Notes: generated by a model from the letters alone, not told the origin. 64,000 bases of DNA from an uncultured Chloroflexia bacterium (GCA_963712745.1 CAVQJC010000005.1:32001-96000), one strand, 5' to 3'. Counted from the stretch's first letter, positions 41,679 to 64,000 are shown. Numbers and translations: made by a program.

Positions 41679-41753
41679 TGGTCGGGGTGGCGGGGATCGA
41701 ACCCGCGACCTCATGCTCCCAAAGCATGTGCGCTACCTCTGCGCTACACCCCG
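41679..41753 (-). tRNA. tRNA-Pro (anticodon TGG), intact with encoded CCA
   Basis: CGGGGTG/CACCCCG acceptor stem, GCGC D-stem, CATGC-TTTGGGA-GCATG anticodon arm, GCGGG-TTCGATC-CCCGC T arm, ACCA end; 75 nt. Confidence 0.98.
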
Positions 41754-41829
41754 ATGGTGTTCGTGCGTGGATAGGGTACACAGCGCGGCTCGATGACGAC
41801 ACCGATGGGGCCTACACGGCTCGAACCGC
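41754..41829 (-). promoter_or_regulatory. tRNA upstream region, equal to the right arm of the array repeat; -10-like TACCCT at 41773-41778
   Basis: Homologous to the right arm of the array repeats; -10-like hexamer 19 nt upstream of the mature tRNA 5' end. Confidence 0.7.
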
Positions 41830-41883
41830 GGTATCGTCGGGCAGCCTGCGCGCGATGGAAATGCCGGAGTGGGCAGCCACAGA

Positions 41884-42777
41884 TCAACCTCTGCCGATGA
41901 ACTCGAGGATGTCCGGGCAGAGGCGCTCGTCCGAGATGGCCTGCATATGGTCCTTGCCTTCGTAGACACACAGGGTGCAGTCAGGGATCAGGCTGGCGGT
42001 CTCGTCGAGATATCCCTCGGGGAACATGAAGTCGGCATCGCCGCCGATGAGCAGCACCGGGACACCGATCTCGGGCAGGACGGGTCGCGCGTCGAAGGCC
42101 ACCTCGGCCTCGCCCTCGATCAGCACGTCGCTGGCGAACTCGGGGTGCCCGCCGCGGAACCCAATCCGTCCCATCACCTGGCCGAACAGCCAGGCCAGGC
42201 CGGGAACACGAACCTGCGGGAAGTAGTCTTCGAACATCCCCCTGGCGGCTTCGACCGGTCGACCTTTGCTGAGGCGCTCGGCGAACCGGTAGTCGATGTG
42301 TTTGCCGCGCTCGCTCACCTCGTAGCCAGCCAAGGCGATGACGATGTGGTCGAAGCGATCGGGGTGGCGAGCCGCCAGATAGAAGCCGATGATTCCGCCG
42401 TATGACGTCCCGAGCGCCACGTCCACCTTGCCGCCCAATTCCGACTCGATGAACTCAGCGTAGTCGTCGGCCATGTCGGCGATGGAATGCCCCTGCGGCA
42501 TGCCCTGCTTGCGCATGACGTACCAGATCGTGTAGCCCTCGTCGATGAACCGGCGGAACGGGCGAAGCATCATCCGGAGACTGATACCAGCGGGGGCGAA
42601 GTTGCCCGGACCACCGGGCATGAGCAGGAGCGTCTTCGCTCCCTCGCCCCATCGCGCGTACGCCATGCGACTCTTGGACATGCCGGTGACCGGCCTCGGT
42701 GCTCCCATCCAGACCGCCCGGCGTCCGGCGAGGATGGCCACGCCAGCCACGAAGAACAGTGCGATGAGTCGTCTCAT
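41884..42777 (-). CDS. Alpha/beta hydrolase (module 1)
   Basis: PGGPG, nucleophile elbow GTSYGG, GGDAD, KDH. Confidence 0.88.
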   Translation of the reverse strand: MRRLIALFFVAGVAILAGRRAVWMGAPRPVTGMSKSRMAYARWGEGAKTLLLMPGGPGNFAPAGISLRMMLRPFRRFIDEGYTIWYVMRKQGMPQGHSIADMADDYAEFIESELGGKVDVALGTSYGGIIGFYLAARHPDRFDHIVIALAGYEVSERGKHIDYRFAERLSKGRPVEAARGMFEDYFPQVRVPGLAWLFGQVMGRIGFRGGHPEFASDVLIEGEAEVAFDARPVLPEIGVPVLLIGGDADFMFPEGYLDETASLIPDCTLCVYEGKDHMQAISDERLCPDILEFIGRG

Positions 42778-42779
42778 GA

Positions 42780-43628
42780 TCAAACCCCTCTTTCGACTCG
42801 GACGGCGGCTTCCTCGGCTCGCGGCCTGGCGATCGCTCGCACCCGTACCGCCTCGGGCGAGGGAGTGGGCTCCCGACGGAGTTCGGTCGGCAGTTCCTGG
42901 CCGCCGACCCAGGCCTCAATCGTGCGGATGTGCAGGTCGGGTGCCTGTCTTTGCCAGCAGTGGTCAAGGCCGGGCGCGTACCAGGCCTCGCCGTGGGGCA
43001 TGAGCGCGGCAAGGGCCGCGTTGGACGGCCGGTACCAGGCCTCTTGCTCACCTGCGACGAGCAGCGTCGGGTTCGACGTCTCGGCGAGCGGCGGGAGGCG
43101 TTCCATGCTTCCCACGAAGGCACGCCAGAACGCGAGGCGTGACGCATCGCGCAGGTCAGCCTCATCCATGACATTCCCGAATAGCGCTCGGAACCACCGA
43201 GCGTGCTTGAAGGGCAGTGCCGCGGTCAGCACGTACAGCAGAGGAAGCCTCGACGCTCGCGGCCAGTGGATGGGCGTGCCGTCCGCGATCACCCGATCGA
43301 CCAGTTCCGGATGGCGACTCAGCAAGGTAAGCGCGAGTGTCGCCCCCCAGGAGAGTCCCACCACGTGGACCAGCTGCCCTGGGACCCTCGATCCGATGAG
43401 CTCGGCCAGCAGCGCGACGATATGCCCGTTCGATGACGGTGCAAGGTGGTTGCTGCGTCCGAACCCCGGCAGGTCGGGGGCCAGGCAGTGGAAGTGGCTG
43501 AGCTTGGTCATGTGCCCTTGCCAGATGCGCCCGCTCTGACCCATCCCGTGGATGAAGAGGATGTCCGGTGAGCCCGGTGTCCCTGACTCCTCCACGTACA
43601 TGCCACCCAGGTACTTGGGGTGGCTCAT
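42780..43628 (-). CDS. Alpha/beta hydrolase (module 1)
   Basis: FIHG, PDLPGFGRS, GLSWG, GLDHCW. Confidence 0.88.
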   Translation of the reverse strand: MSHPKYLGGMYVEESGTPGSPDILFIHGMGQSGRIWQGHMTKLSHFHCLAPDLPGFGRSNHLAPSSNGHIVALLAELIGSRVPGQLVHVVGLSWGATLALTLLSRHPELVDRVIADGTPIHWPRASRLPLLYVLTAALPFKHARWFRALFGNVMDEADLRDASRLAFWRAFVGSMERLPPLAETSNPTLLVAGEQEAWYRPSNAALAALMPHGEAWYAPGLDHCWQRQAPDLHIRTIEAWVGGQELPTELRREPTPSPEAVRVRAIARPRAEEAAVRVERGV

Positions 43629-44137
43629 CTCGTCACCCCGACGGTGTCCTCTTCGGAGTCAGACCGCGGTTCCAGGACCACGACCGCCATCTCGCGCGAC
43701 AGCCTGGCGGCATCACTGTCGATGTCGCACATGAAGCCCACGCCGGACCGCTTGCCGAAGTCGCGCCACAGGGCCCACAGGCGCTTCCGTTCATCGCCCT
43801 CCGCCGCCCGTGCCCGAACGGGATGGATCCCATCTTTCAGCCGGACGACGGCATCGGGGCAAGCCTGGAGGTTGAGCCACCACGCAGGGTCCGCGTCGGA
43901 CCACCCGTTGAACGGGATGATGACGAGGTTCGCGCCATCCTCCAGGTAGCCGATGATCGCGCTCCGCTCCCTGCCCGAGTGGCGACCGACCGTCATGAGA
44001 CACATCTCTCCCCAACGATCGGATCTCGGGCGTGATAATGCGAGGCGCCCTCCCGAGAGCCGATGGACGGTGCGCTGGGCAGTCCCGAACCCACGGAAGA
44101 ACCAGGGAGGAGGCAGGCGCCGACGCTCGCTGCTCAT
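43625..44137 (-). CDS. Nitroreductase family deazaflavin (F420)-dependent oxidoreductase (module 1)
   Basis: TVGRHSGRER, NG..DPAWWLNLQA, VVVLEPR; ATGA coupling. Confidence 0.85.
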   Translation of the reverse strand: MSSERRRLPPPWFFRGFGTAQRTVHRLSGGRLALSRPRSDRWGEMCLMTVGRHSGRERSAIIGYLEDGANLVIIPFNGWSDADPAWWLNLQACPDAVVRLKDGIHPVRARAAEGDERKRLWALWRDFGKRSGVGFMCDIDSDAARLSREMAVVVLEPRSDSEEDTVGVTR

Positions 44138-44778
44138 GCCGACGCATCTGCCGGCTTCGTGCCTCGGGCGAGCAGCGCCTTCGAGAACACCGGCATCACC
44201 GAGACGGTGACATCGCCGAAGCCGGCCTCCTCCACCAGCCGCTGTGCGGCGTCGTCGGTCCACTGCCACTGGCCCCACTTGTCGACCACGCCCTCGGTCG
44301 CGCCGGCCGGCGCCTCCCCTGCCTCACCCAGGGTGACTGCCAGCCGACCGCCCGGACGCAGGACCCGGTGCATCTCCTTCAGCGCCGCCAGCGGATCGGG
44401 GAAGAACTTCATGGCGTTGACGGAGGTAGCGACGGTGAAGCGGCCGTCGTCCCAGGGCAGATGGTCGGCATCGCCCTCGACGATCTCCGCGGTGCCCGCG
44501 GTGATGCGCTCGGCCAGGCGGCGCCGGGCCGCCTCGAGCTGCAGCGCCGAGGCGTCGAGACCAGCGACGTAGCGCACACCTCCCGCGTGGTCGACGAACA
44601 GCGTCGCCGAGCCACATCCGACGTCGAGCAGCTCATCGTCGGGCTGCAGGTCCAACTCCGCGGCGATCGCCTCGTGGAATGGACGGCTGCTTCTCGGCAT
44701 CAGCCTGACGCCGAGTCGTCCGGGCAGGCCGTGCGGTACTCCGAAGAATGACATCCACCAACTTCGGCGCAGACCCAT
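44134..44778 (-). CDS. Class I SAM-dependent methyltransferase (module 1)
   Basis: LLDVGCGS, GDADHLPW, EMHRVLRPGG. Confidence 0.92.
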   Translation of the reverse strand: MGLRRSWWMSFFGVPHGLPGRLGVRLMPRSSRPFHEAIAAELDLQPDDELLDVGCGSATLFVDHAGGVRYVAGLDASALQLEAARRRLAERITAGTAEIVEGDADHLPWDDGRFTVATSVNAMKFFPDPLAALKEMHRVLRPGGRLAVTLGEAGEAPAGATEGVVDKWGQWQWTDDAAQRLVEEAGFGDVTVSVMPVFSKALLARGTKPADASA

Positions 44779-44799
44779 CGCACGTCCCCCCATGCACAC

Positions 44800-44902
44800 G
44801 GGCCGGGTTCGCCAGTGGCTCGGCGCGGTCCTCAGCGGCCATGATCGACGGGCCGCGCGTCCTCGCCTCCCGCTAGGTCCGATTATCCCGTGGCAGCCAA
44901 GC
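44800..44902 (-). repeat. Leader motif B, copy 1
   Basis: GGGTTCGCCAGTGGCTC...CAGCGGCCATG...GCCTCCCGCTA...ATTATCCCGTGGCAGCCAAG; shared with 50654, 56783, 59634, 63010. Confidence 0.8.
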
Positions 44903-44962
44903 CCGATGTCTGGAAGGGGCGGCTAATCGGGCAGCTATGCCGCCATCATCTGGCGTCGACCG

Positions 44963-45171
44963 GATCACGCTCGCGAACCGCACAATAATCGACGCCTTCG
45001 CCGCTCGGGGCGCCACGCTCACAACCCCCGCAGCCTTCGCCGCTCGAGCCTGAAAGGCTCCCAAAGCATGTGCGCTACCGCTGCGCTACACCCCGACGTG
45101 GTTCGTGCGTGATTAAGGGTACACAGCGCGCCTCGATAGCGACGCCGATGGGCCTACAGCACTCGAACCGC
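44963..45171 (-). repeat. Array repeat R1 (tRNA-Pro 5' half at 45057-45095)
   Basis: CACGCTCGCGAACCGCAC...GCTCCCAAAGCATGTGCGCTACCGCTGCGCTACACCCCG...AGGGTACAC...CTCGAACCGC. Confidence 0.95.
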
Positions 45172-45312
45172 GCGATATGCCGAACGGGTCAGTCTCGCGC
45201 CATGGGCCTCGATCCGGAGCATGCCAAGGTCGTATCCATGGGCCCCAGGTCGGCGCTGTGCGACTCGAGGCGACGCTGCCGCCAGCCGGACGCTCGTCGT
45301 TCCTCCGCCAGG

Positions 45313-46500
45313 CTACTCGCGACCCGACTGCCGTGCGAGGTCGCGCTTGAACTCATCGATCTCGGGGACCGAGATGACCGACTCGCTGAGCCAATCGGGC
45401 AATCCACCCACCGCAGCGAGGTCGACGTTCGAGCCACCCATGCGCTGGACGTACGCTGGATCGGTCACGATGAACTCCCAGGGATGGACCTCCGCCATAC
45501 GGGTCACGATCTGCTCCGCCGTGATGTTCACGACGGTGTAGTCCTGGGCTAGCGTGAACGGGCCGCGGTAGCCGGTGCGGAGACCATCGAGAATCGGCTG
45601 CGGCGTCCCCGGAGCGATCATCGCGTGATAGCCCATGGCCATGCCCGGCTTGGTCGCCTCGAAGACCTTCGCGGCGGCCTGCGGTGCGGTGTGCATCGTC
45701 CAGGCGACGGTCCTCGCGATGAGCTCGGGCCAGCCCATCTTCTCCATGTACATCTCCGGCGGATTGAAGATCTCATGGATGAGGAGATCGACGCCCTTGG
45801 CATTCTCGACGGTGAAGGTCGATGGTTCGCAATCGCCGGCGTACACCAGCGACAGCCCCGCGTAGTCCAGGCGGTAGCCGACCGCACCGAAGATGGAATG
45901 TGGCACCGGGAACGCGCGGATGGCGACGCCGTCCTCTTCGTAGATGAGGGTCGCCTCATCCGCCGCGAAACGATGCGGCGTGATCTCGTACACGCGCGGA
46001 TCCAGCCCGGCCTTGGCGCGATCATGCCAGGTCGCCAGACGCTTGATGGCGTCCACGACAGCCTCGGTGGACTCACCCTCGCCGCTGCCGTCGGGTCCGT
46101 GGATGTGCATCGGCTCGAGCCGCCCGTTCGTCTGGCCGAAGTCGTAGTAGACGGGCAGGTCGGCGATGTGATCGAGGTGGAAGTGGGTGATGAAGAACCG
46201 TGTCGCCTTCCAATACGGCAGTCGCAGCGTGTTGAAGGCCATGTTCGTGCCCGGGCCGGCATCGAAGATGAAGCTCTGTCCGTTGCCGCACTCCACGAGC
46301 CAGCCGGCGCAGCCCTGGCCCCGCCGTGCCGGATAGCCGGTGCCCAGGGCGGTGACGCGGACCTCCGCCCTCGCCAACTCCTCGGACTCGGGCGTATAGC
46401 GGTCCGGATAGGTACGTCGCTCAGCAGACTCGTCCTTCACCACGACCGGATGCGTCGTCAGCGGCACGCTGTGGTACGGCTCGGGTAGTCGCTCAGCCAT
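45313..46500 (-). CDS. MBL-fold metallohydrolase (RNase Z / AtsA-like) (module 2)
   Basis: ALGTG, FDAGPG, THFHLDH, VPH, YAGD, LIHE. Confidence 0.9.
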   Translation of the reverse strand: MAERLPEPYHSVPLTTHPVVVKDESAERRTYPDRYTPESEELARAEVRVTALGTGYPARRGQGCAGWLVECGNGQSFIFDAGPGTNMAFNTLRLPYWKATRFFITHFHLDHIADLPVYYDFGQTNGRLEPMHIHGPDGSGEGESTEAVVDAIKRLATWHDRAKAGLDPRVYEITPHRFAADEATLIYEEDGVAIRAFPVPHSIFGAVGYRLDYAGLSLVYAGDCEPSTFTVENAKGVDLLIHEIFNPPEMYMEKMGWPELIARTVAWTMHTAPQAAAKVFEATKPGMAMGYHAMIAPGTPQPILDGLRTGYRGPFTLAQDYTVVNITAEQIVTRMAEVHPWEFIVTDPAYVQRMGGSNVDLAAVGGLPDWLSESVISVPEIDEFKRDLARQSGRE

Positions 46501-46664
46501 CTTCGTGCCTCCCTTGGGCTGTGGTTGAACCTGCTCGACATCGACGGTACCGGGTTTGGCCAGGGTCGACGCGGCAGAGGTTCCCCGGCAGCGTGCAACC
46601 GATGCAGGCAATCGCTACGGTAAGGCCCACCGGCCTCACGTCGCAGCCATACAGAGGTACATGT

Positions 46665-49001
46665 ATGCCAGAGCACGATCCAGTCGTGGATGGATCTACG
46701 CTTCCGTTTCCCAAGCCCAAGTCTGGCAGCGTGGCCGGCCGCACGATGCAAGAGTCCATCTACGACCCGGCGCCCCCACCACAGCGGCTGCCGGCTGATG
46801 CGCCGAACATCCTGATCATCCTGATCGACGATGCCGGGCCAGCGCTGCCGGAAGCGCTGGGCGGTGTCGTGCACACCCCGACGCTGGAGCGAGTCCTCTC
46901 GGAGGGGATCGGGTTCAACCGCTTCCACACGACAGCCATGTGCTCGCCCACCAGGGCCTCGTTGTTGACGGGCCGCAACCACCACCGGGTCGGCAGCGGC
47001 GTGATGACCGAGTTCGCCAACGACTGGGATGGCTACTCGGGCGTCATCCCCCGCAGTAGCGCCCTCCAGGCCGAGGTGCTGCGACAGTACGGCTACGCCA
47101 CCGCCGCGTTCGGCAAGTGGCACAACACCCCTGGGATCGAGACGTCGGCGGCCGGGCCGTTCGACAATTGGCCGGCTCGCATCGGGTTCGAGTACTTCTA
47201 TGGGTTCCTCTCGGGTGAAGCCTCACAGTACGAACCGAACCTCGTCCGCAATACGACCCCGGTCCTGCCGCCGAAGACGCCGGAGGAGGGATATCACCTG
47301 AGCGAGGACCTCGCCGAAGACGCGGTCCGCTGGCTCCAGACGCACAAGGCGGTGCAGCCCGACAAGCCCTTCTACCTGTACTGGGCGAGTGGAGCCGTCC
47401 ATGGCCCCCACCACGTTCACAAGCAGTGGGCTGACAAGTACCGTGGCATGTTCGACGACGGCTGGGACGCCTATCGTGAGCAAGCGTTCGAAGGCGCCAA
47501 GGCGAAGGGCTGGATCCCGGAGACCGCCGAGTTGACGCCCCGGCATCCGACGATGCCGGCGTGGGACGATCTCCCAGAGGACCAGAAGCCGTTCCAGCGC
47601 CGCCTGATGGAAGTGTTCGCCGGCTTCGGCGAGCACGCCGACGTACAGGCGGGCAAGGTCATCGATGAGATCGAACGCCTCGGCTACGGGGATAACACCC
47701 TGGTCGTCTACATCTGGGGTGACAACGGATCATCGGGCGAGGGCCAGCAAGGAACCATCAGCGAGTTGATGGCGGTGAACGGTATCCCCTCCACGGTCGA
47801 GCAGCACATCGAGGCCCTCGACACGCTCGGCGGGCTCGATGTGCTTGGCTCACCGCTCGTCGACAACATGTACCACGCTGGGTGGGCGTGGGCGGGCAGC
47901 GCCCCCTACCAGGGCATGAAGCTGCTCGGATCGCACTTCGGTGGAACCCGGAACCCGATGGCCATCCGATGGCCCGCGAGGATCACACCCGACGCGAGAC
48001 CGCGATCGCAGTTCCACCACTGCAACGACCTCGTGCCCACTATCTACGAGCTGCTTGGCATCACGCCGCCGCAGACCGTGAATGGAGCCCCCCAGGACCA
48101 GATCGATGGGGTGAGCCTGGCCTACACCTTCGATGACCCTGACGCCGAAGGGCGCCTTCGCACGCAGTACTTCGACATCATGGGTAGCCGGGCGATCTAT
48201 CACGACGGCTGGATGGCCTCCGCCATCGGGCCACGGCTGCCCTGGGTCCCAGGTCTCGACCCGAAGATGTTCGAGTGGACACCCGACAAGGACGTCTGGG
48301 AGCTCTACAACCTCGAGGAGGACTGGTCGCAGGCCCATGACCTCGCCGGGGCGATGCCCGAGAAGCTGGCGCAGATGAAGGAGGTCTTCCTCATCGAAGC
48401 GGCCAGGAACAAGGCCCTGCCGATCGGCGGCGGGCTATGGATCCCCTTCCATCCTGAGTTCCGTGCCGCATCGCCGCAGACCGAATGGACCTTCGCAGGC
48501 GACCTCGTTCGCATCCCGGAGCCCGTCGCGCCGGGGCTGGGCAACAGGCCCAACGTCGTCACCATCCTCGCGGACGTGCCCAGCGACGCCACCGGTGTGC
48601 TCTACAAGCTTGGTGCTGGCTCTTCTGGCGTCACGCTGTTCGTCGAGGACGGCCACCTGGTCTACGAGTACAACCTGTTCATCATCCAGCGAACCCAGAT
48701 CCGTTCCGCCACCAAGCTTCCGGTCGGCAAGGTGGAGATCCGAGTGACGACCCTGCCGGTCGAACCGCGCCCCTCGGGTCCCCTGCAGGTGATGCTCGAG
48801 GTCAACGGCGACGCCGTGGGCGAAGGCACCGTCCCGGTCAGCATCCGTACGAGCTTCACGGCCAACGACTGCCTGGACATCGGGCAGGCGCTCGGCTCTC
48901 CAGTCTCGCTCGACTACCGTGACCGGGCACCGTTCAAGTTCAACGGCACGATCGAGCAGGTCCAGGTGAGGTACCTACCACCGGCGCAGCCGTCAGCGTA
49001 G
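46665..49001 (+). CDS. Arylsulfatase (formylglycine-dependent) (module 2)
   Basis: IDDAG, CSPTRASLLTGR, FGKWH, GDNG; RBS AGAGG. Confidence 0.95.
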   Translation: MPEHDPVVDGSTLPFPKPKSGSVAGRTMQESIYDPAPPPQRLPADAPNILIILIDDAGPALPEALGGVVHTPTLERVLSEGIGFNRFHTTAMCSPTRASLLTGRNHHRVGSGVMTEFANDWDGYSGVIPRSSALQAEVLRQYGYATAAFGKWHNTPGIETSAAGPFDNWPARIGFEYFYGFLSGEASQYEPNLVRNTTPVLPPKTPEEGYHLSEDLAEDAVRWLQTHKAVQPDKPFYLYWASGAVHGPHHVHKQWADKYRGMFDDGWDAYREQAFEGAKAKGWIPETAELTPRHPTMPAWDDLPEDQKPFQRRLMEVFAGFGEHADVQAGKVIDEIERLGYGDNTLVVYIWGDNGSSGEGQQGTISELMAVNGIPSTVEQHIEALDTLGGLDVLGSPLVDNMYHAGWAWAGSAPYQGMKLLGSHFGGTRNPMAIRWPARITPDARPRSQFHHCNDLVPTIYELLGITPPQTVNGAPQDQIDGVSLAYTFDDPDAEGRLRTQYFDIMGSRAIYHDGWMASAIGPRLPWVPGLDPKMFEWTPDKDVWELYNLEEDWSQAHDLAGAMPEKLAQMKEVFLIEAARNKALPIGGGLWIPFHPEFRAASPQTEWTFAGDLVRIPEPVAPGLGNRPNVVTILADVPSDATGVLYKLGAGSSGVTLFVEDGHLVYEYNLFIIQRTQIRSATKLPVGKVEIRVTTLPVEPRPSGPLQVMLEVNGDAVGEGTVPVSIRTSFTANDCLDIGQALGSPVSLDYRDRAPFKFNGTIEQVQVRYLPPAQPSA

Positions 49002-49066
49002 CCGAGGTCGTAGCCCGACCGCGTCGAATCGGGCTACAGGAGCAGGCGTGAGTTGCTCAAGGCCGG

Positions 49067-49277
49067 CACGCTCGCGAACCGCACAATAATCGAGGCCTTC
49101 ACCGCTCAGCTCGCCACGCTCGAAGCCCCGGAGCCTTCACCGCAAACCCCTCCTAGGCTCCCAAAGCATGTGCGCTACCGCTGCGCTACACCCCGATGGC
49201 GTCTGTGCACGGATAGGGTACACAGCAGGGCTCGATAGCGACACCAGAGAGCCTACAGCGCTCGAACCGCACAATAA
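49067..49277 (-). repeat. Array repeat R2 (tRNA-Pro 5' half at 49157-49195)
   Basis: Same architecture as R1; GAACCGCACAATAA at both ends. Confidence 0.95.
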
Positions 49278-50629: not shown

Positions 50630-50653
50630 AGCATTCCCCCATCTGGTTCGCGG

Positions 50654-50752
50654 GGCGGGTTCGCCAGTGGCTCGACACGGTCCAGGCGGCCAGTTCTGGG
50701 GCTGTGCCTCATCGCCTCCCGTTACCACTGATTATCGCGCGGCCGCCAAGCC
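50654..50752 (-). repeat. Leader motif B, copy 2
   Basis: GGGTTCGCCAGTGGCTC...GCCTCCCGTTA...ATTATCGCGCGGCCGCCAAG. Confidence 0.8.
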
Positions 50753-53685: not shown

Positions 53686-53717
53686 TCAGCTGTGGCTGGA
53701 GCCTCCGGTGGAGGGCG

Positions 53718-54896: not shown

Positions 54897-54995
54897 CTGG
54901 GTCTCCTTGGGAAGGGCGAATTGCGAGCCGATGATGCCAGACCCCATCCGATGCGGCCATCGATCACGCGACCGCCCTGATGGTCAACGACGTGT

Positions 54996-55155
54996 CGCGC
55001 TCCCGAACCGCACGATGATCGAGGCCTTGGCCGCAAACCCCTCGCAAGCTCCCAAAGCTGTGCGCTAGCGCTGCGCTACACCCCGACGTGGTTCGTGCGT
55101 GACTGGGGTACACGGGAGGGCTCGATGGCGATACCAAGGGGCCTCACAGCGCGCG
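54996..55155 (-). repeat. Array repeat R6, internally deleted (tRNA-Pro 5' half at 55048-55085)
   Basis: Left arm lacks the roughly 40 bp between the two GCCTTCRCCGC direct repeats; 1-nt deletion in the anticodon stem. Confidence 0.9.
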
Positions 55156-55202
55156 GGAAAACAGGCCTGCCCCCGGCGGTGCGTCGAGCTGAGCTCCTGG
55201 TA

Positions 55203-56072: not shown

Positions 56073-56764
56073 GCCACGGACGCCTTGACGGGCATCTGTC
56101 GCTCTGGGGCGCTGGCCACCGCGGTGGATGCCGGTTTGACAGCCCGGACGAGCTGGGACTTGGAGGGCACCGGCAGGACCGTGACGCTGATGTCGGTGAA
56201 GCCTGCCTCCTCGACAAGCCTGGCCGCGTCGACGTCGCTCCAGAACCAGACGCCCCAAGCGTCGCGCGTACCCGACTTGTCGGTCCGCCCCAAGAGGGCC
56301 TTCGTGTTGTCGCCCATGGTGAAGACGGCGCGTCCACCGGGTCGCAGGACGCGGTGCATCTCAGCCAGCGCCCCTCCCGGGTCGGACGTGAACTTCATGG
56401 CGTCGAGGGAGGTGACGACGCCGAAGCGGGAGTCCTCCCAGGGCAGGTCCGCAGCATCGCCGAGGACGATCTCGGCCGTCCCCGCGGCGATGCGTTCGGC
56501 CAGACGCTTTCGGGCCATCTCGATCTGGAGCTCCGAGGCATCGATGCCGGCCACGTAGCGGACGTGAGCGGCGTGCTCGGCGAAGAGCACCGCCGATCCG
56601 CAGCCGACGTCGAGCAACTCGTCGTCGGCCTGGAGGTCGAGCTCGGCGGCCATGGCGCGATGGTACTTGCCCTTCATCGACGCCAGCAGCCGGGCACCGA
56701 TCCAGCCGAGCGGACCGTGGGGCACTCCCAGCAACGCGTAGTCGAACGATCTGCGCAGACCCAT
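56069..56764 (-). CDS. Class I SAM-dependent methyltransferase, paralog of 44134-44778 (module 7)
   Basis: MGLRRS, LLDVGCGS, GDAADLPW, EMHRVLRPGG. Confidence 0.92.
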   Translation of the reverse strand: MGLRRSFDYALLGVPHGPLGWIGARLLASMKGKYHRAMAAELDLQADDELLDVGCGSAVLFAEHAAHVRYVAGIDASELQIEMARKRLAERIAAGTAEIVLGDAADLPWEDSRFGVVTSLDAMKFTSDPGGALAEMHRVLRPGGRAVFTMGDNTKALLGRTDKSGTRDAWGVWFWSDVDAARLVEEAGFTDISVTVLPVPSKSQLVRAVKPASTAVASAPERQMPVKASVA

Positions 56765-56782
56765 CGCACGTCCCCCTTGCGC

Positions 56783-56883
56783 GGGCCGGGTTCGCCAGTG
56801 GCTCAGCGCGGTCCTCAGCGGCCATGGTCACGGACCGTGCGTCGGAGCCTCCCGCTACCCACCATTCTCGCGCGGCCGCCAAG
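56783..56883 (-). repeat. Leader motif B, copy 3
   Basis: GGGTTCGCCAGTGGCTC...CAGCGGCCATG...GCCTCCCGCTA...ATTCTCGCGCGGCCGCCAAG. Confidence 0.8.
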
Positions 56884-56947
56884 ACCATGGTGCGGTCGGA
56901 ACCTATCAGCCGGGCGGCAACGAGTGAGCATCATGCAGGCTGCCACG

Positions 56948-57165
56948 GATCACGCTCGCGAACCGCACGATGATCGAGGCTTTCGCCGCTTCCCCGGCCA
57001 CGCTCACGCCCCCGGAGCCTTCGCCGCTCGAGCCTAGAAGGCTCCCAAAGTATGTGCGCAACCGCTGCGCTACACCCCGACGAGGTTCGTGCCTGACTAG
57101 GGTACACAGCGGAGCTCGACAGCGACATCTGAAGGCCTGCAGCGCTCGAACCACACGATGATCGA
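56948..57165 (-). repeat. Array repeat R7 (tRNA-Pro 5' half at 57041-57079)
   Basis: Same architecture; GAACC(G/A)CACGATGATCGA at both ends. Confidence 0.95.
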
Positions 57166-57753: not shown

Positions 57754-58194
57754 TCAGCTCCCAGCTTCGGCTTCCTTCGGCGCGATGATCTTCGCCAGCA
57801 GCGGCTGGTCGATGATGTAGTCCTTCGCTGAGCGTGCCTTGCCACCCTCGACCACGAACGCCGTCACACCGGTGAGCTGGGAGCAATGGCCATCGTGATC
57901 ACCCTCTTCGAGGTCCCACTCCACGTGCACGACGTTGGAGTTCGAGACCGCCCAGACGTTCTCGACCGAGACGTGTCGAACGGTGAAGCGCGTCACCGGC
58001 ATCGTCTCGAACCAGTTCGCGAACCACTCACGGTTGGCCTCGCGTCCCTCGAAGCGGCCGCTCCTGACGGTCTCGCCCGGGAACTCGAAGACAGCATCCT
58101 CGTGGAACAGCTCGGCCACCGCGTCAGGGTCCCGTCCGTTGACCGTCGCGTAGCCCTGTCGCACCGCTCGCTGCATCAAGACCGCACCGATCAT
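57754..58194 (-). CDS. NTF2/SnoaL-like protein (module 8)
   Basis: FHEDAVFEFPG..SGRFEGRE..WFANWF, VHVEW; RBS AGGAGG. Confidence 0.85.
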   Translation of the reverse strand: MIGAVLMQRAVRQGYATVNGRDPDAVAELFHEDAVFEFPGETVRSGRFEGREANREWFANWFETMPVTRFTVRHVSVENVWAVSNSNVVHVEWDLEEGDHDGHCSQLTGVTAFVVEGGKARSAKDYIIDQPLLAKIIAPKEAEAGS

Positions 58195-58210
58195 GTCGTC
58201 CCTCCTTTGG

Positions 58211-59575
58211 CTAGGCTCGTACCCCGTAGCCGACCTGCAAATCGTCGCTCGGCGAGTGGACCTCGACCGCATCGAAGCCGGCATCGTGCAGTAGCTGCGC
58301 AAGCTCCTCGTCGCTGTAGAGCGTGGCCTTGTGCAGGAACCAGCCCACGGCACGAGTGCCGACGTCCTCGCGCTTCGGCTTGGGCATGGTCACGACCACG
58401 AAGCGACCGCCGGGCTTCAGGACCCTGACGGCCTCGTGCAGGACCCTTGGCGGGTCGGCGGCGAGGAAGAGTGCCGCCAGATTGGACTCCGCGTCGAAGG
58501 TGGCGTCGTCCCAGGGCAGCGCGGTGGCGTCACCGAGGCGCACCTCGAGGCGGCCCTCGGCCACTGCCCGAGCGTTGTTCTCCCGTGTCAACTCGACCAT
58601 ATCCGGGCTGTGGTCGATGCCGGCAGCCTGGTCGACCGTCTCGAGTGCCTGCGACAGGAACGTCCCGCCACCGCAGCCGACGTCAAGCAGATGGTCCGTT
58701 GGCGCCAGAGCGAGCTTCTCGTGGCAGGCGCGCCAGCCCTCGCCGTGCATCGAGGTCGCGTCTCGGTAGAGCATCCGGCCGATGGGTCCGCTGGGCCGCG
58801 AGATCGCCATATCCGTCAGCCGATCGACGATGTCACGACCTCGCAGCATGAGCAGCGCCGCACCGGCCACAGCCGCGCCAGCGAGCGCGAGGAGGAATCG
58901 ACGCCTAGCCACCAAGCCCATGAGTCCGACGATGGCTGCGACCGGCCAGACCCATATCAGATCGAGCGGGAGTGGCGCCGGCCCGGGCTCGTCGACCGGG
59001 TCGAGACGGACGACGTGGATGCGCTCGATGTCCCGGGCGAATCCCTCGGGGCTGTCCTCGACCCCCAGGTCAGCGAGGTACTCGTGGAACCGGCGACGGA
59101 CGCCGTGTTCGAGTATCGCGTACTGTGCGACCGCCTCGTCATGGTCGGTGGGATGGGCCGCGCGGGCCGTCCAGGTGCCGTGGGCATCCTGGATGGTGAC
59201 GATGGGGTCGGCCACCAGGTTGCGATACCAGTGGGCCCGGTCTCCATAGGGGTTCCATAGGTACCTGCGGCCCTCGATCTGGGCCCCGCCAATGACGATC
59301 CGTCGGGGCAGCCCGCTCGCTCGACCCGTGGTGGTGAGGACGACGTCACCCTCGATCCGGCCCAGCCCGAGCCTCCACAGGAGCATCGGAGCCCGGTGCG
59401 CGAGGCGGACCAGGAGTGTGTCCGGGTAGGCGGCGAGTCGGTCTTCGATGCGATCGTAGAGCTGGTGCAGCCGCGAGCCCATACGGTCGGCTGGCGTCAC
59501 GCCGGGCAGTCCAGCCGTGCCGGTGTCGGCATCCTGCTCCAGCCGTGATGCACTGGTCGGGGCGGTGGCGACCAT
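58211..59575 (-). CDS. Fusion: deazaflavin-dependent nitroreductase domain + TM segment + SAM methyltransferase (module 8)
   Basis: LTTTGRASGLPR, WYRNLVADP; hydrophobic linker; LLDVGCGGG, GDATALPW, RVLKPGG. Confidence 0.85.
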   Translation of the reverse strand: MVATAPTSASRLEQDADTGTAGLPGVTPADRMGSRLHQLYDRIEDRLAAYPDTLLVRLAHRAPMLLWRLGLGRIEGDVVLTTTGRASGLPRRIVIGGAQIEGRRYLWNPYGDRAHWYRNLVADPIVTIQDAHGTWTARAAHPTDHDEAVAQYAILEHGVRRRFHEYLADLGVEDSPEGFARDIERIHVVRLDPVDEPGPAPLPLDLIWVWPVAAIVGLMGLVARRRFLLALAGAAVAGAALLMLRGRDIVDRLTDMAISRPSGPIGRMLYRDATSMHGEGWRACHEKLALAPTDHLLDVGCGGGTFLSQALETVDQAAGIDHSPDMVELTRENNARAVAEGRLEVRLGDATALPWDDATFDAESNLAALFLAADPPRVLHEAVRVLKPGGRFVVVTMPKPKREDVGTRAVGWFLHKATLYSDEELAQLLHDAGFDAVEVHSPSDDLQVGYGVRA

Positions 59576-59633
59576 CGGCTCCCCCTGCTCGAAGCGGGTC
59601 GCGAGCGCCCGCACCAGCCGGTGGCGTTCACCG

Positions 59634-59671: not shown

Positions 59672-59746
59672 GGTGCGCCTGGCTCAGCTGGGCGGGACCG
59701 TTGGGGTGCCGGGCAGTCCGCCGAAGCGACGAAGCGGCCGGCATTT

Positions 59747-59957
59747 CACGCTCGCGAACCGCACGATAATCGAGGCCTTCGCCGCTCCCCCGGCCACGCT
59801 CACGCCCCCGGAGCCTTCGCCGCTCGAGCCTGAAAGGCTCCCAAAGCATGTGCGCTACCGCTGCGCTACACCCCGACGAGGTTCGTGCCTAGAGAGGGTA
59901 CACAGCACGCCCCTATAGCGACACAAAGGGACCCACAGCGCTCGAACCGAACACGAT
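59747..59957 (-). repeat. Array repeat R8 (tRNA-Pro 5' half at 59837-59875)
   Basis: Same architecture as R1. Confidence 0.95.
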
Positions 59958-60081
59958 CTGGTCCACGAACGCTGGGTCGTCATCACTGAACGTTGGCCAC
60001 GCTCTCGTACCGCACAATGATGTGGGTAGCGGCGGCTCGGGGCACCGGGCAGGTCCGCAGAAGCAGCGAGGAGCCGATGCC

Positions 60082-61137
60082 ATGACATCGTCACCGCCAC
60101 CGCCACGGCCGATGCCTTCGAGCCTGACGCCCGTCGGCAAGCTCGGCTTCCGCGGACGCGCGGCCACACCCGAGGAGCGGGCCCGCATCTTCGACGCACT
60201 GTTCTTCGAGGGCGCGCAACGGATCCCCTACCTGCAGCAGTACTTCGTGCTCATGTTGCTCTCGGCCGCGATCGCCGCCTTCGGGATCGTCAACGACAGC
60301 GCCGCAGTGGTCATCGGGGCCATGCTCGTGGCACCGCTGATGACGCCCATCCTCGCGGTCGCTGCGGCGATCGTTCATGGCTGGGGCCGCCGGGCCCTCG
60401 AGTCGCTGCTCATCGTGGCTGCCGGTGCCCTCGCCGGGATCGGCGTCGGCATCGCGGTCGGATGGCTGGTCCCGAACGTGAACACGGGCCTGCCGTTGCC
60501 GGGTGAGCTCCTCGCGCGCACGAGCCCGAACCTCGTCGACCTGTTCATCGCGCTCGCCGCCGGTAGCGCGGCCGGCTTCGTGACGGTGCGGACCGAGGCT
60601 AGCGGTGCCTTGCCGGGCGTGGGCATCGCGGTAGCGCTGGTGCCACCGCTCGCGACCATCGGCATCACCATCGGCCTTGGAGACTGGGGACTCGCCTGGG
60701 GGGCGCTGTTGCTGTTCGCGACGAACCTCGTGGCCATCGTCCTCGCGGCTGGCGCGGTGCTCCTCGCGGCCGGGTTCGCGGCGTTCCGTGACCTCGAGGG
60801 CGCCCGTAGTGCCTCGCTCGCCACCAAGCTCGTCTGGATCGGCCTCCTCATCGTCGCCGTCCCGCTCGCGTTCCAGTCGTGGGCCCGCTACCAGGAGAGC
60901 GTGGCGCGCGGGCACATCGTCGAGGCCATCGAGACCTGGGCTGCCGACCTCAGAATCCGCGACGTGCACATCGACCGCTCGGCCGACCCGGTCCTCGTCG
61001 AGGTCACGGTCGTGGGACCCGAGGAACCGCCGCCGCCAGGCAGGCTGGCCGAACTCACGGCAGAGGATCTCGGACGACCGGTGCGGCTGGAGGTGACCTG
61101 GGCACCGATGACGGCGGTCGAAGCCCCGGCTCCCTAG
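60082..61137 (+). CDS. DUF389-like membrane protein (module 9)
   Basis: DSAAVVIGAMLVAPLMTPI, ELLARTSPNLVDL, LPGVGIAVALVPP, LLFATN. Confidence 0.88.
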   Translation: MTSSPPPPRPMPSSLTPVGKLGFRGRAATPEERARIFDALFFEGAQRIPYLQQYFVLMLLSAAIAAFGIVNDSAAVVIGAMLVAPLMTPILAVAAAIVHGWGRRALESLLIVAAGALAGIGVGIAVGWLVPNVNTGLPLPGELLARTSPNLVDLFIALAAGSAAGFVTVRTEASGALPGVGIAVALVPPLATIGITIGLGDWGLAWGALLLFATNLVAIVLAAGAVLLAAGFAAFRDLEGARSASLATKLVWIGLLIVAVPLAFQSWARYQESVARGHIVEAIETWAADLRIRDVHIDRSADPVLVEVTVVGPEEPPPPGRLAELTAEDLGRPVRLEVTWAPMTAVEAPAP

Positions 61138-61273
61138 GCTGGGCCCGACGGTGCGCACGGGCGATAGCCAACGGCGCCGCACGAACGCGTCTATCGATCG
61201 AGAACGTGTGCGCCCGTCTGGGTTCGCGATCCGGACCGCTGGCGACAACCGGGGCCTCTGCTCGAGGCGTGAC

Positions 61274-61485
61274 CGTGCTCGCGAACCGCACGATGATCGA
61301 GGCCTTCACCGCTCGGGCCATCTCGCTCAGGACCCCTGAGCCTTCGCCGCTCGAGCCTGGAAGCCTCCCGAAGCATGTGCGCTACCGCTGCGCTACACCC
61401 CGACGGAGTTCGTGCCTGGCTACGGGTACACAGCGGGCCTCGATAGCGACAACGACGGGCCTACAGCGCTCGAACCGCACGATGA
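61274..61485 (-). repeat. Array repeat R9 (tRNA-Pro 5' half at 61364-61402, anticodon variant CGG)
   Basis: Same architecture; loop reads TTCGGGA on the minus strand. Confidence 0.93.
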
Positions 61486-61632
61486 CCCCGAACCGCTCGA
61501 AGTCGTGGACGTTGGACTCCGGTCGCAACAGGCAGACTCAGGGCCCGTGGCCGAATCCGGGTCCCGCGGTGAGGCACGGGTGGACTTGGGCGGTCAGCTC
61601 GCACCCATCCGCAGCTGTCTCGTCGGCGTCGC

Positions 61633-62229
61633 TCAGCGTGGCAGCGGGTTCGGGCCGGTCGCGGTCACGAGCCGCTGTGGCATCCAGTCGTCGACGTGGT
61701 GGAACCCGTCCTCGAACTGACGACCATCGAGCTCGACTGATGCTCGCAGCGAAAGTCGATAGAACTTCACGTGCGTGAAGTCCTCGAACAGGATGTAGAC
61801 GGGGTCGGGTGTGCTGTTCGGGCCTTGGAACTGCTGGCCCGTCAGGACGGGCTTGTGGACTTCGACGAACGTGTCGAACGTGTCGCCCACGACGACGCCG
61901 AGGTGTTCCAGGCCCATCTTGTAGACGCGCTGATGGACCGGGGGAATGAGCTCGATCATCGGAACCTCCTTGTCGTCAAGCGCCTCTAGCGGCTCGGCGG
62001 GAAGGATCAACGAGATCGGCCGACCGTTCCAGAGGTTCTCGAGGTTCGAGGTCGCGTGGCGCTCCAGGAGCGTCCGGACGTGGACGTACTGGTCCCACTC
62101 GGGCACGCGGAACGCAAGGTGGCTAAGCGCGTATGGGGCGATGTCGATGCCGCGCTCCAGTAGGCGGTCGCGCTGTTGGGCCGCGAAGGCTCGGTAGTCC
62201 CCGATGATGTCGCCTACCGGATCGGCCAT
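61633..62229 (-). CDS. VOC family (YecM-like) protein (module 10)
   Basis: SHLAFR, NLWNGRPI, IELIPP, GLEHLGVV, VKF; RBS GAGGAGG. Confidence 0.8.
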   Translation of the reverse strand: MADPVGDIIGDYRAFAAQQRDRLLERGIDIAPYALSHLAFRVPEWDQYVHVRTLLERHATSNLENLWNGRPISLILPAEPLEALDDKEVPMIELIPPVHQRVYKMGLEHLGVVVGDTFDTFVEVHKPVLTGQQFQGPNSTPDPVYILFEDFTHVKFYRLSLRASVELDGRQFEDGFHHVDDWMPQRLVTATGPNPLPR

Positions 62230-62334
62230 CGCCTCCTCCTCTCGGTCGCCATCGTACGATACTGTGCAGCGAATCTGGAAGCTCAGCGGCATCACGCCCA
62301 TCGGCTAGGCAGCCCGTCGCCCGGTGCGGTATGC

Positions 62335-62481
62335 CACGCGCGCGAACCGCACAATGATCGAGGCGTTCGCCGCTCGCGCCGCCGCGCTCAGGACCCCGTC
62401 GCCTTCGCCGCTCGGGCCTGAAGGGCCCCCAAAGCATGCGCGCTGCCGCTGCGCTACACCCCGACGAGATTCGTGCGTGGA
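62335..62481 (-). repeat. Array repeat R10: left arm plus tRNA 5' half (62425-62463), right arm missing here
   Basis: Similarity stops after TCGTGCGTGGA. Confidence 0.9.
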
Positions 62482-62788
62482 GGGGAATTGAGCGACTGAT
62501 CGACCGGGAGTGTCCGCCGGCACTGCTTCCATCCGTTGCATCCAGGGCTCACCGAGGACCTGCCCGATTCGCAGCGATTGGCGGACACGGACCATCCGTA
62601 GCTCCCGCCGAGCGTCGAGCGCCCCGAATGACAGCCCTTACAGCTTGCCTGGCCGGCTCGCCTGAGGCATCGTGTGTGCTGCAAGAGCGCAGGCTGACGG
62701 CATGCAGGGGAAGCTGCGCGGGAGGAACCCAGATGAACGCTCCCGACCCCCAACCGCGTGTCGGTGACATAGGCGGAGGTGGGGGCTC

Positions 62789-63000: not shown

Positions 63001-63009
63001 TGACGCGGA

Positions 63010-63082
63010 CCAGCGGCCATGGTCCGCGAGCCGCGCGTCGTCGCCCCCCGCTACCCTCGATTATCCCGTGGCCGCCAAGCCG
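63010..63082 (-). repeat. Leader motif B, copy 5 (truncated)
   Basis: CAGCGGCCATGG...CCCCGCTACCCTCGATTATCCCGTGGCCGCCAAGCC. Confidence 0.75.
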
Positions 63083-63142
63083 GGAGTCAGAGTCAGGCGG
63101 CTCGCTCGAGCAGCCAGGCCACCAGCGTCTGGACCCTGCCGC

Positions 63143-63219
63143 GCGTAGATAGGGTACACATCGGGCGGCCCGCCGGCGGTAGCGGAGGGGCCTACAGCGC
63201 TCGAAGCGCACGATAGTCG
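63143..63219 (-). repeat. Orphan right arm of the array repeat
   Basis: GCGTAGATAGGGTACAC...GGCCTACAGCGCTCGAAGCGCACGATAGTCG without tRNA half or left arm. Confidence 0.85.
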
Positions 63220-63250
63220 GCCTTCGCTCGACCGCAATGGTTCCGTCTTG

Positions 63251-63859
63251 TCACATGGCCAGGCCTTCCGCTCGGTCGCGGATAGTGAGCATCTGCTTCC
63301 GCACCATCAGGAGCACGACGAGCCCGATCACCCGCATGGCGGCCGCACTCACGCGACGCGGGAGGGCCGGACGAGACCGGATGCGCTCGACGAGACGGGA
63401 CCGCCGGCCGCCCTCCATCGGCTCGAGGATGAAGGCCCAGCTCCAGCTGCCGGCGATGTCGCTGTAGAGGACCAGTGTCCGCTCGGGCTCGAGCTCGCGT
63501 ACGACCCACTCGTTGATGGGGTCGCCCACCGTCAGGTCCTGCCACTCGGGCACGATGCGGTCGGCCCCTTTGCGGTGCGGGAGGCCGAACACCGAGTAGC
63601 TGTACTCGCCACCCCGGTCATCGCCCATCTGCACGAGCCACGGCCAGACGGCCGACGGCGGGGCCGCGATCTCGAGGGTTCGCGTGTCGACGGCGACCGG
63701 GTCCACCACGAGGTCATCACCGGGTAGCGCACTGGCACTCAAGACGGGATCGATACCCCACGAGACCATGCGCTCCCAGATGCCGCTGAGATGCAGCGCC
63801 GTCGCCGCCGTCCCTACCACGCCGACGGTCGCCAAGCCGATCGCCAGCACCTTGCCCAT
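63251..63859 (-). CDS. SRPBCC-like protein
   Basis: LPGDDLV, IAAPPSAVWPWLVQMG..RGGEYSY, ADRIVPEWQDL, SWAFIL. Confidence 0.85.
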   Translation of the reverse strand: MGKVLAIGLATVGVVGTAATALHLSGIWERMVSWGIDPVLSASALPGDDLVVDPVAVDTRTLEIAAPPSAVWPWLVQMGDDRGGEYSYSVFGLPHRKGADRIVPEWQDLTVGDPINEWVVRELEPERTLVLYSDIAGSWSWAFILEPMEGGRRSRLVERIRSRPALPRRVSAAAMRVIGLVVLLMVRKQMLTIRDRAEGLAM

Positions 63860-64000
63860 GGGCCACCTCCCTTCGAATCGGTCGGGCGATCCGTTGAGCG
63901 TCGCTCAGGTGACGACCACCTCTCGGTGATTCCGTTGCCTCGCTCGCATCCCCCGCCGCAGATGCGGCCGGCTTGGTGGCGTGCACCAGCCTGGACTTGT

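Follow-up and report, generated by a model that had tools for sequence, protein, structure and literature searches.

An integron-like row of integrase-less gene cassettes bounded by tRNA-Pro 5' halves in uncultured soil Chloroflexota

A window of 64,000 nucleotides from the genome of an uncultured soil Chloroflexota bacterium of the Limnocylindrales type (GCA_963712745.1, CAVQJC010000005.1:32001-96000) holds, upstream of its tRNA-Pro(TGG) gene, a long row of small gene modules without an integrase, most of them bounded by repeats that contain the 5' half of that tRNA. The assembly as a whole, here G000, comprises 4.2 Mb in 20 contigs and is 84.6% complete; "the window" means the entire stretch analysed, C5:32001-96000 in our contig numbering. 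We class the feature with tRNA-targeting tyrosine-integrase elements that have accreted non-autonomous members, here organised like an integron, and we consider it probable, at roughly 65%, that it has grown through successive site-specific insertions at the anticodon loop, the inserted cassettes bearing att sites but being non-autonomous, with an integrase that acts in trans or in cis. Among the observations that carry this reading are the anatomy of the repeats, the variation of the arrays between conserved flanks in related genomes, the horizontal spread of single modules whose tRNA-proximal breakpoints fall at the anticodon loop, and the presence in relatives of integrase-carrying elements that displace the same tRNA half.

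The tRNA-Pro(TGG) gene, called by ARAGORN, is the sole tRNA of the window, one gene among the 47 tRNAs of the assembly and its only TGG isoacceptor. A repeat search of the window returned a ten-copy family that includes the tRNA itself, and the core spacings obtained with a second repeat family, D2 (3342, 4100, 1762, 1704, 952, 1472, 1994, 2796, 1527 and 1061 bp), lie within 1 nt of those given in a preliminary description of this DNA; the ten repeats R1 to R10 that it had named, each of ~210 bp with a 39-nt tRNA 5' half, are likewise confirmed. Without D2, the ten-copy family shows a single spacing of 3466 bp in place of 1762 and 1704. Every full repeat is made of a left arm, the 39-nt half and a right arm. 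The tRNA stretch common to all repeats runs from the acceptor 5' end to 2 nt beyond the anticodon loop, past which the tRNA continues AT... and the repeats continue CT.... A profile built from R1-R10 and run over the entire assembly recovers each of the ten at E values of 1e-40 to 1e-66 and yields 29 matches, 21 on the window's contig and eight on five other contigs. The intact tRNA aligns only from profile position 105 onwards, over its 5' half and right arm, which bears out the earlier statement that it has the right arm alone. The array runs well past the window edge: the 21 matches on the contig share a single orientation and extend from the tRNA to ~49 kb upstream (window position 41713 to ~90600), full-length repeats reach C5:108887 and remnants reach C5:122598, so that at least 14 kb by full repeats, and up to 26.6 kb with remnants, lie beyond the window, which shows only about half of the array. 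Two partial copies inside the window had also gone unlisted (Table 1).

Read in the direction of the tRNA, the repeat contains six conserved blocks: block 1, GTGCGGTTCGAGCGCTGTAGGCC; block 2, GCTGTGTACCCTAT, followed by the tRNA half as block 3; block 4, which adjoins the core and occurs in two variants, TTTCAGGCTCGAGCGG or TACGAGGGGTTTGCGG; block 5, in which GAGCGG(C/T)GAAGGC stands twice; and block 6, GTGCGGTTCGCGAGCGTG. From the conserved end blocks it follows that a GTGCGGTTCG..GAGCG motif, also written GTGCGGTTCG(C)GAGCG, is present at both outer ends. In the right arm a TACCCT hexamer of the TANNNT type, conserved 22-27 nt before the tRNA 5' end, could be a -10 element. Terminator-like sites number four in 41601-61600, against 4.6 expected. 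The arms are kept as sequence and not as RNA structure; a structured RNA was tried as a reading of the repeat and rejected, since RNAalifold on 29 repeats gave a covariation term of -1.06 with double changes in one of 31 pairs, and Rfam models at their gathering thresholds left the arms without a match, their only hits being the tRNA and riboswitch-like aptamers. The D-loop reads AGAGG in the intact tRNA (window 41713-41753) and in R3, and AGCGG in the other displaced 5' halves; relatives have both forms. The coexistence of the two fits a process in which each cassette brings its own 5' half.

How could a row of modules without a recombinase be built at such a gene? Islands made by tRNA-targeting integrases normally each carry their own integrase and replace the 3' end of the tRNA. 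We propose that here a cassette circle would bear an attP-like site of ~210 bp, in which the right arm (a copy of what lies upstream of the tRNA) is followed by the tRNA's initial 39 nt and then by the left arm, and that a Xer-like tyrosine integrase would cross over in the anticodon loop, its gene being carried by autonomous sibling elements with the same target site. The tRNA would be rebuilt from the right arm and 5' half of the cassette joined to the resident 3' half, leaving the sole tRNA-Pro(TGG) intact, while the old 5' half and upstream region would be pushed outward and fused to the left arm of the newcomer, re-creating an attP-like unit. Repetition would give a row of cassettes divided by attP-like repeats, the newest beside the tRNA. 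The integrase could act in trans; alternatively it could act in cis, neighbouring elements being excised together, as happens with cis-mobilizable elements (CIMEs). Loss of the integrase element would leave the array in place, in the manner of the clusters of attC sites lacking an integron integrase (CALINs) known among integrons. We infer, then, that this integrase moves the cassettes, that insertion always takes place at the intact tRNA, that the array grows in the direction just described, one-sidedly from the tRNA, as the layout and the relatives suggest, and that displaced tRNA promoters drive the mostly co-oriented genes.

Comparison of the tRNA-Pro region in 17 related Chloroflexota genomes of the Limnocylindrales type shows an array that varies between fixed neighbours. 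In all 17, tRNA-Pro(TGG) stands beside the same downstream genes, and 15 have at least one further repeat on its upstream side; no two genomes need agree in how many modules there are, how they are spaced or what they contain. The distal flank is also conserved in G010, G001 and x41, at 6.4, 4.3 and 2.9 kb from the tRNA. A draw of genomes from the same genus has the repeat in 14 of 24, with 1 to 11 matches each, and in other genera of the taxonomic family the left arm and core recur at 69-76% identity. The total with a match is at least 24 of 151 genomes and at least 11 of 49 genera, both counts being lower bounds because only five candidates were scored per genome.

Single integrase-less modules have spread horizontally between these genomes. 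The two-ORF cassette that forms module 5 of the window (ORF, open reading frame) is module 1 in three relatives, module 2 in two, module 4 in two and module 5 here, and occurs in nine genomes in total, G000 included; module order is thus not fixed between relatives, a point on which the preliminary description had itself proposed to be judged. Shared cassettes are far more alike than the flanks of the arrays that hold them: cassette against flank identity is 98.1% (over 792 bp) against 72.6% for G021/x38, 92.3% against 70.9% for G021/G024, 95.4% against 74.3% for G009/G021, 93.8% against 70.9% for G009/G024, 94.9% against 75.1% for G000/G009, 89.6% (over 3550 bp) against 73.8% for G000/x44, and 89.1% against 83.7% for G010/x44. 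Cassettes at differing positions and so much closer than their surroundings (98% against 73%) argue for horizontal movement.

The tRNA-proximal breakpoints of these shared blocks fall at the anticodon loop. The two-ORF cassette adjoins the intact tRNA in G021 and is the second module in x38, and the 98% block of this pair starts exactly at GCTCCCAAAGC, the anticodon loop written on the plus strand; to the left of GCTCCCAAAGC stands the tRNA 3' half in G021 and the left arm in x38. In G013 and G014, where both copies are internal, the left arms are 84-88% identical, and from the core onward, through the right arm and the gene, identity is 98-100%. Judged from the sequences, such proximal breakpoints are what an anticodon-loop crossover predicts, the left arm of a repeat belonging on the proposed scheme to the tRNA-proximal neighbour and the 5' half and right arm to the cassette.

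Relatives also encode a plausible enzyme. In G008 the module adjoining the tRNA, 5.9 kb long, contains a 312-aa tyrosine recombinase (103 bits on PF00589, with a SAM-like N-domain) whose start lies 120 nt upstream of tRNA-Pro and which is divergent from it, transcribed away from the tRNA; the far end of the module is a left arm with part of a 5' half. Among 151 genomes sampled from the taxonomic family, 72 encode an integrase of the G008 type, a count that takes in one unpublished genome, G120. Among sixteen loci with homologues that we compared, five at tRNA-Pro(TGG) are placed as in G008 and share 65-77% identity, four at tRNA-Val(GAC) and one at tRNA-Arg(TCG) are placed likewise, three more distant homologues lie in the usual place, past the 3' end of tRNA-Gly or tRNA-Gln, and three have no tRNA within the fetched stretch; the Pro and Val homologues together are 61-77% identical. 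Displaced 5' halves with zero or one mismatch end the elements in L105 (two copies), L109 (~9 kb) and L110, where the half is an exact copy of that of tRNA-Val ~9.9 kb away; in L105 the integrase element is followed by two repeat-bounded modules. A copy of a tRNA 3' half was found in none of ten loci. Placement, displaced 5' halves and shared arms together point to an integrase clade whose elements replace the tRNA 5' half and carry the arms of the cassettes, and 5'-half replacement seems to be a trait of this clade over several tRNA targets. At L112 (G153 C15), L108, L110, L113 and L115 the integrases lie upstream of, and divergent from, tRNA-Arg(TCG) and tRNA-Val(GAC).

Against NCBIfam models the integrase matches XerC, XerD and XerA best, at 140-163 bits (XerC 163), all below cut-off. 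It is not IntI: the site-linked integrases of the relatives score 58, 46 and 36 bits on TIGR02249, for which the cut-off is 265. At E<=1e-20 no integrase of the G008 type was found in G000, G009, G010, G007 or G171. The PF00589 matches in G000 all lie away from the array: they are two Xer-type genes, a protein of 586 aa encoded on C12, and a weak hit on C17. G009 has two Xer-type genes only, and G010 has those and one match below cut-off. A tblastn search of nine integrases against the 17 arrays returned only the G008 gene itself, a 17-24-aa scrap in G014 (E 0.05-0.65) that resembles the integrase N-terminus and stands directly after a right arm, and a chance-level match in G000 (E 0.9). A tyrosine recombinase, which the preliminary description had proposed to look for, exists beside the tRNA 5' end in relatives, and no member of its family was found in this genome. 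Across G000 tblastn brought up, apart from the Xer-type genes (28-34% identical), nothing but an N-terminal scrap of 58 aa beside a tRNA-Lys gene. That scrap (C17:373739-373912, minus strand) is 41% identical to the integrase family and lies upstream of, and divergent from, tRNA-Lys(TTT) at C17:374074-374149 (plus strand), as the intact elements do at their tRNAs; it is probably what is left of a decayed relative, at another tRNA.

We looked for signs of present-day mobility in public data. Even the best public runs contained no more than 0.47 of the words sampled, and those only as short Logan contigs; four runs from four studies were compared with 41001-61000 at 93% likeness. The joints in these runs have mostly sides of 21-35 nt, and those checked fall in repeats or in paralogous riboswitch and methyltransferase segments, which makes them indistinguishable from cross-matches; among the joints of the four runs, given their short contigs, there was no clean core-to-core deletion and no circle. 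The attP-type junction, a 5' half followed by a left arm, has no exact match in viral contigs and is present in 13 metagenome contigs of 1.2-15 kb, several of which hold two or three repeats and are therefore arrays.

Several observations weigh against the scheme. None of the 13 junction contigs is circular, as judged by terminal overlap, and none has an integrase; the G000 assembly, at its stated completeness, contains no integrase of the G008 family. The Xer-like integrase is short and has no recognisable arm-binding domain, though the conserved arms span ~100 bp. A consensus promoter scan of 41601-61600 gave no promoter-like site, and hence none in the arms, where 1.8 were expected, numbers too small to be informative. 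Eight copies of the repeat lie outside the array in G000, and others do so in G022; in three of the outside copies a different repeat family adjoins at the edge of the anticodon loop. The distal ends of the high-identity blocks miss the next core, unlike the prediction of a simple model: the G021/x38 block ends ~75 nt before the next left arm, the G013/G014 block ~20-30 nt into it, and the G021/G024 block near profile position 65. In nine instances the repeat is reduced to the initial ~30-75 nt of its left arm, and unrelated DNA stands behind it in place of a displaced 5' half; one of these copies is in the window and eight are in five relatives, which makes six genomes. In x41 there are nearly no repeats between recognisable cassettes. 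We take these untidy distal ends as decay and recombination among repeats overlaid on a site-specific process. The serial insertion with an integrase in trans that had originally been suggested is largely supported: the varied arrays, the mobile cassettes, the breakpoints at the core and a matching integrase in relatives speak in favour, and no circles or excision joints were seen in the data searched.

The same distal ends are also the main evidence for supposing that the row is a relic, its modules being decayed autonomous elements, CIMEs in the strict sense, that are now shuffled by homologous recombination between the ~210-bp repeats or between the flanks after DNA uptake. This we consider unlikely. 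It would explain why the conserved blocks end variably, in or before the left arm, why many repeats are truncated or lost and why no integrase was found in G000, G009 and G010; the G014 scrap just past a right arm could be a remnant of such decay, and the formation of CIMEs by decay and accretion has already been described (PMC5704250). Homologous recombination does not readily place the proximal breakpoints at the anticodon-loop core, as they are in two comparisons, one with both copies internal and one in which a copy is the tRNA itself; cassettes of 0.87-0.95 kb with full-length arms recur in nine genomes with no trace of an integrase; and 98% identity from the core onward beside flanks of 73% is hard to produce by flank-guided exchange. 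Might the XerC/XerD-type recombinases of the host move the cassettes, with no foreign integrase needed? Integrative mobile elements exploiting Xer (IMEXs) at dif are moved by XerC/XerD in this way, the element integrase is itself Xer-like, every genome checked has two strong Xer-type genes, and arrays occur in genomes with only those two (G009, and G010 bar its one match below cut-off). There is, however, a dedicated integrase family tied to exactly this site and displacing exactly this tRNA half, to which the host Xer-type genes are just 28-34% identical, and we regard a host-driven process as very improbable.

To the idea that the repeat is an element of its own, like a miniature inverted-repeat transposable element (MITE) or a repetitive extragenic palindrome (REP), which arose from the tRNA-Pro upstream region and spreads alone, punctuating an ordinary variable region, we give next to no credence. 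The copies on other contigs, the secondary clusters in G022 and the recurrent partial copies could be read that way, and the preliminary description had named dispersal through the genome as a sign of it; eight of the 29 copies do lie elsewhere. The other 21 are not scattered. They form one array in one orientation at the tRNA, an array stands at the same tRNA in all 17 relatives examined, the blocks of horizontal identity begin at the core, the same arms bound elements that carry an integrase, and the 40 array ORFs scanned contain no transposase. With serial insertion at the anticodon loop as the preferred reading, we turn to what is already known of comparable systems.

Integrons are the textbook platform for stacking small cassettes that lack a recombinase, and CALINs are arrays of attC sites without an integrase. 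The present array shares with them small, mostly co-oriented cassettes of one to four genes with a conserved site each, arrays without a resident integrase, toxin-antitoxin-like cassettes and a content that differs between close relatives. It differs in its integrase, which is Xer-like and not IntI; in insertion inside an essential tRNA gene; in its site, probably a ~210-bp double-stranded attP-like unit with a tRNA half, where integrons have a folded attC (the RNA covariation test on 29 repeats gave no structure signal); and in that each cassette here brings a copy of the tRNA upstream region as a candidate promoter, whereas integron cassettes share one promoter, Pc. The label "integron-like" used in the preliminary description is apt for the manner of working and does not extend to membership, the integrase not being IntI and the sites probably not attC-like.

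With the tRNA islands catalogued in Islander the array shares site-specific insertion into a tRNA gene, a gene restored by the element, and a displaced fragment that marks the far end. In the accessible part of that report (PMC4383910) the anticodon-centred site is one of two common sublocations, with 2083 of 3919 islands, a 5' fragment is involved in 159 of 3919, and 125 tandems of at least two islands, four of them of at least three, are counted, each member being required to carry an integrase. As far as those figures go, replacement of the 5' half is known but rare, and a run of at least 17 members without an integrase is far outside that picture. Cognate 5' fragments do lie upstream of the intact tRNA gene, all in its orientation; an integrase in each island is lacking among the 40 array ORFs scanned and present in the sibling elements of G008, L104-L107 and L109. 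With a 5' half as the displaced piece, moreover, the element must bring an upstream region.

Two further kinds of element resemble the array. CIMEs, in the source already cited as far as available (PMC5704250), lack an integrase, keep attL and attR, occur in tandem with a functional element and can be mobilised in cis by the integrase of that neighbour. Here, too, full repeats bound most modules, and in relatives, L105 for example, this site is taken by integrase elements that have these arms. Described cases, of the ICESt1/ICESt3 type, are one or two decayed integrative and conjugative or integrative and mobilizable elements (ICEs, IMEs) that lie at a gene's 3' end and are transferred by conjugation; the present row has at least 17 very small cassettes, many recurring in several genomes, and it is the 5' half of the tRNA that is replaced. 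Tycheposons of Prochlorococcus, in the part of the preprint at hand (bioRxiv 10.1101/2020.12.28.424599), are cargo elements whose tyrosine recombinases are specific for single tRNA genes, tRNA-Pro(TGG) among them, and their islands grow on the tRNA-proximal side by repeated integration and decay, with partial tRNAs flanking the elements. Each of these carries an integrase and mostly a replication module, the tRNA-specific recombinase of a tycheposon being of the tyrosine or the large serine kind, and the array cassettes (40 ORFs) have neither; the remainder of a tycheposon island is described, in that part, as degenerated elements and flanking material and not as a regular att-bounded row without integrases. 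Our literature search, which covered open sources and neither subscription journals nor supplements, found no paper on rows of integrase-less cassettes delimited by tRNA 5' halves, nor any that reports elements of this sort from Limnocylindria. The earlier remark that no described system fits thus holds for the arrangement as a whole, in the sources as far as they were open to us, and fails for its parts, since displacement of the 5' part of a tRNA gene, accretion of CIMEs and tycheposon islands are all in print.

We know of no description of cassette stacking comparable to that of integrons for tRNA-targeting integrases, which are much commoner. If the reading given here is true, cassette stacking arose a second time, from ordinary att recombination; accessory-gene variation in an abundant uncultured lineage of soils and sediments would be largely explained; an essential tRNA gene would be found, in nature, to be rebuilt with a foreign 5' half and promoter at each insertion; and a compact pair of integrase and site, with a 39-bp block of identity, could be tested in a laboratory host. 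A bolder version, which we put forward tentatively and at somewhat less than even odds, is that this is a second, independently evolved integron-like system of gene capture in a soil and sediment family of Chloroflexota, in which dedicated circles are inserted and excised by the integrase of transient siblings and displaced promoters are re-used, some of them by way of variants resembling the c-di-GMP-II riboswitch (for cyclic di-GMP), so that the array would be a permanent, expressed stock of accessory enzymes and toxin-antitoxin pairs common to several species.

The features of the window part of the array, and the dispersed elements discussed below, are collected in Table 1. Module 7 is a paralogue of module 1 (~75% identical); the ORF of module 3 overlaps its aptamer at the 5' end and was probably called too far upstream; and a 586-aa ORF from 63717 onwards, in the modules that run off the window, is an alpha/beta hydrolase fused to a methyltransferase.

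Table 1. Features of the tRNA-Pro(TGG) array in the window, with riboswitch-variant matches in L001 and the ~125-nt repeat family of G000. Positions are those of the window unless L001 or a contig is named.
Feature	Position	Strand	Basis
Intact tRNA-Pro(TGG), proposed attB/attR end of the array	41679..41753	-	ARAGORN
Right arm of the intact tRNA, homologous to the right arm of every repeat; putative promoter	41754..41834	-	profile; promoter role inferred
Module 1: two alpha/beta hydrolases, F420H2-quinone-reductase-like ORF, Methyltransf_11	41884..44879	-	Pfam
c-di-GMP-II-GAG-type aptamer before Methyltransf_11 of module 1	44792-44879	-	Rfam
R1: left arm, 39-nt tRNA 5' half, right arm	44957..45178	-	repeat search, profile
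Module 2: metallo-beta-lactamase-fold ORF (-), 826-aa sulfatase (+)	45313..49001	both	Pfam
R2, core-adjoining left arm of the "type B" variant	49060..49277	-	profile
Module 3: 432-aa ORF, weak DUF4886 match	49430..50728	-	Pfam
c-di-GMP-II-GCG-type aptamer at 5' end of module 3 ORF	50644-50728	-	Rfam
R3 (type B)	50821..51028	-	profile
Module 4: zinc-type alcohol dehydrogenase (-), DUF6326 (+)	50974..52479	both	Pfam
R4	52524..52745	-	profile
Module 5: two short ORFs that overlap (50 aa, 84 aa)	52850..53397	-	ORF layout
R5	53478..53695	-	profile
Module 6: serine beta-lactamase-fold (PF00144) protein	53718..54947	-	Pfam
R6, left arm with internal deletion (type B)	54984..55157	-	profile
Module 7: alpha/beta hydrolase and Methyltransf_11	55203..56861	-	Pfam
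c-di-GMP-II-GAG-type aptamer of module 7	56775-56861	-	Rfam
R7	56941..57163	-	profile
Module 8: SnoaL-like protein; ORF with F420H2-quinone-reductase-like and methyltransferase domains	57754..59614	-	Pfam
R8	59738..59955	-	profile
Partial copy, start of left arm only	59990..60021	-	
Module 9: DUF389 membrane protein	60022..61137	+	Pfam
R9	61268..61486	-	profile
Module 10: YecM-like protein	61633..62301	-	Pfam
R10, right arm divergent	62326..62539	-	profile
Partial copy, right arm only	63140..63217	-	profile
Start of next modules, running off the window	63251..64000	-	Pfam
Riboswitch-variant match	L001 2049-2135		Rfam
Riboswitch-variant match	L001 5486-5572		Rfam
Riboswitch-variant match	L001 16507-16590	-	Rfam
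~125-nt repeat family	C10:7128-7250		
~125-nt repeat family	C17:5248-5370		
~125-nt repeat family	C17:27991		
~125-nt repeat family	C9:6883	-	
~125-nt repeat family	C20:35320	-	
~125-nt repeat family	C4:4719		
~125-nt repeat family	C8:94378		

Array ORFs were chosen by GC content at third positions, and 40 of them, 20 in the window part and 20 beyond it, were scanned against Pfam. None of the 40 matched an integrase, resolvase or transposase family, in line with the earlier claim that the modules lack a recombinase, and none of the ORFs scanned was a conjugation gene. The cargo, besides what Table 1 lists for the window, takes in a second PF00144 protein, a short-chain dehydrogenase, DUF1254/DUF1214 and DUF5661 proteins and a PIN-domain protein, and the tRNA's strand holds 22 of the 26 array ORFs with a Pfam match. 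Several methyltransferase modules are mutually paralogous, at 67-77%. Tandem duplication was tried as the origin of the array and rejected, most modules holding unrelated genes despite these paralogues and the pair formed by modules 1 and 7.

Toxin-antitoxin cassettes are known in chromosomal integrons, and two cassettes of this array recall them. The two-ORF pair of module 5 is toxin-antitoxin-like by its layout only; the other, with a Pfam match to the PIN domain, lies at L001 7911-8342 on the minus strand (C5:103911-104342) and can be read in the same way. Both are among the most widely shared modules, and it is the PIN cassette that is 94.9% identical between G000 and G009. Models of the c-di-GMP-II-GAG and c-di-GMP-II-GCG variants have six matches above the gathering score, three in the window and three in L001, and the genes behind the six aptamers are three of Methyltransf_11, a weaker methyltransferase-like ORF, a DUF4886-like ORF and a 4Fe-4S protein; these riboswitch-variant aptamers travel on cassettes.

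The different repeat family to which outside copies are joined is ~125 nt long, and four copies scanned had no Rfam match. It is fused to the tRNA-Pro 5' part and right arm at C8:96154, C10:7254 and C17:5374, with the junction ...GGATGTG|GCATGTGCGC; the fusion point is exactly the 5' edge of the anticodon loop, and run X1 also contains this fusion, as a loose end. Such fusions may be secondary insertion sites, although comparison of occupied with unoccupied copies of the ~125-nt family on C8, C10 and C17 brought out no clear pseudo-att site. In G022 two or three repeats at a time, accompanied by cassette-like genes, form small secondary clusters away from tRNA-Pro (C12:142058-147617 and C1:457200-457926), and no tRNA was found in the stretches fetched there; G000 itself has such clusters at C8:96154-98255 and C20:31173-32204.

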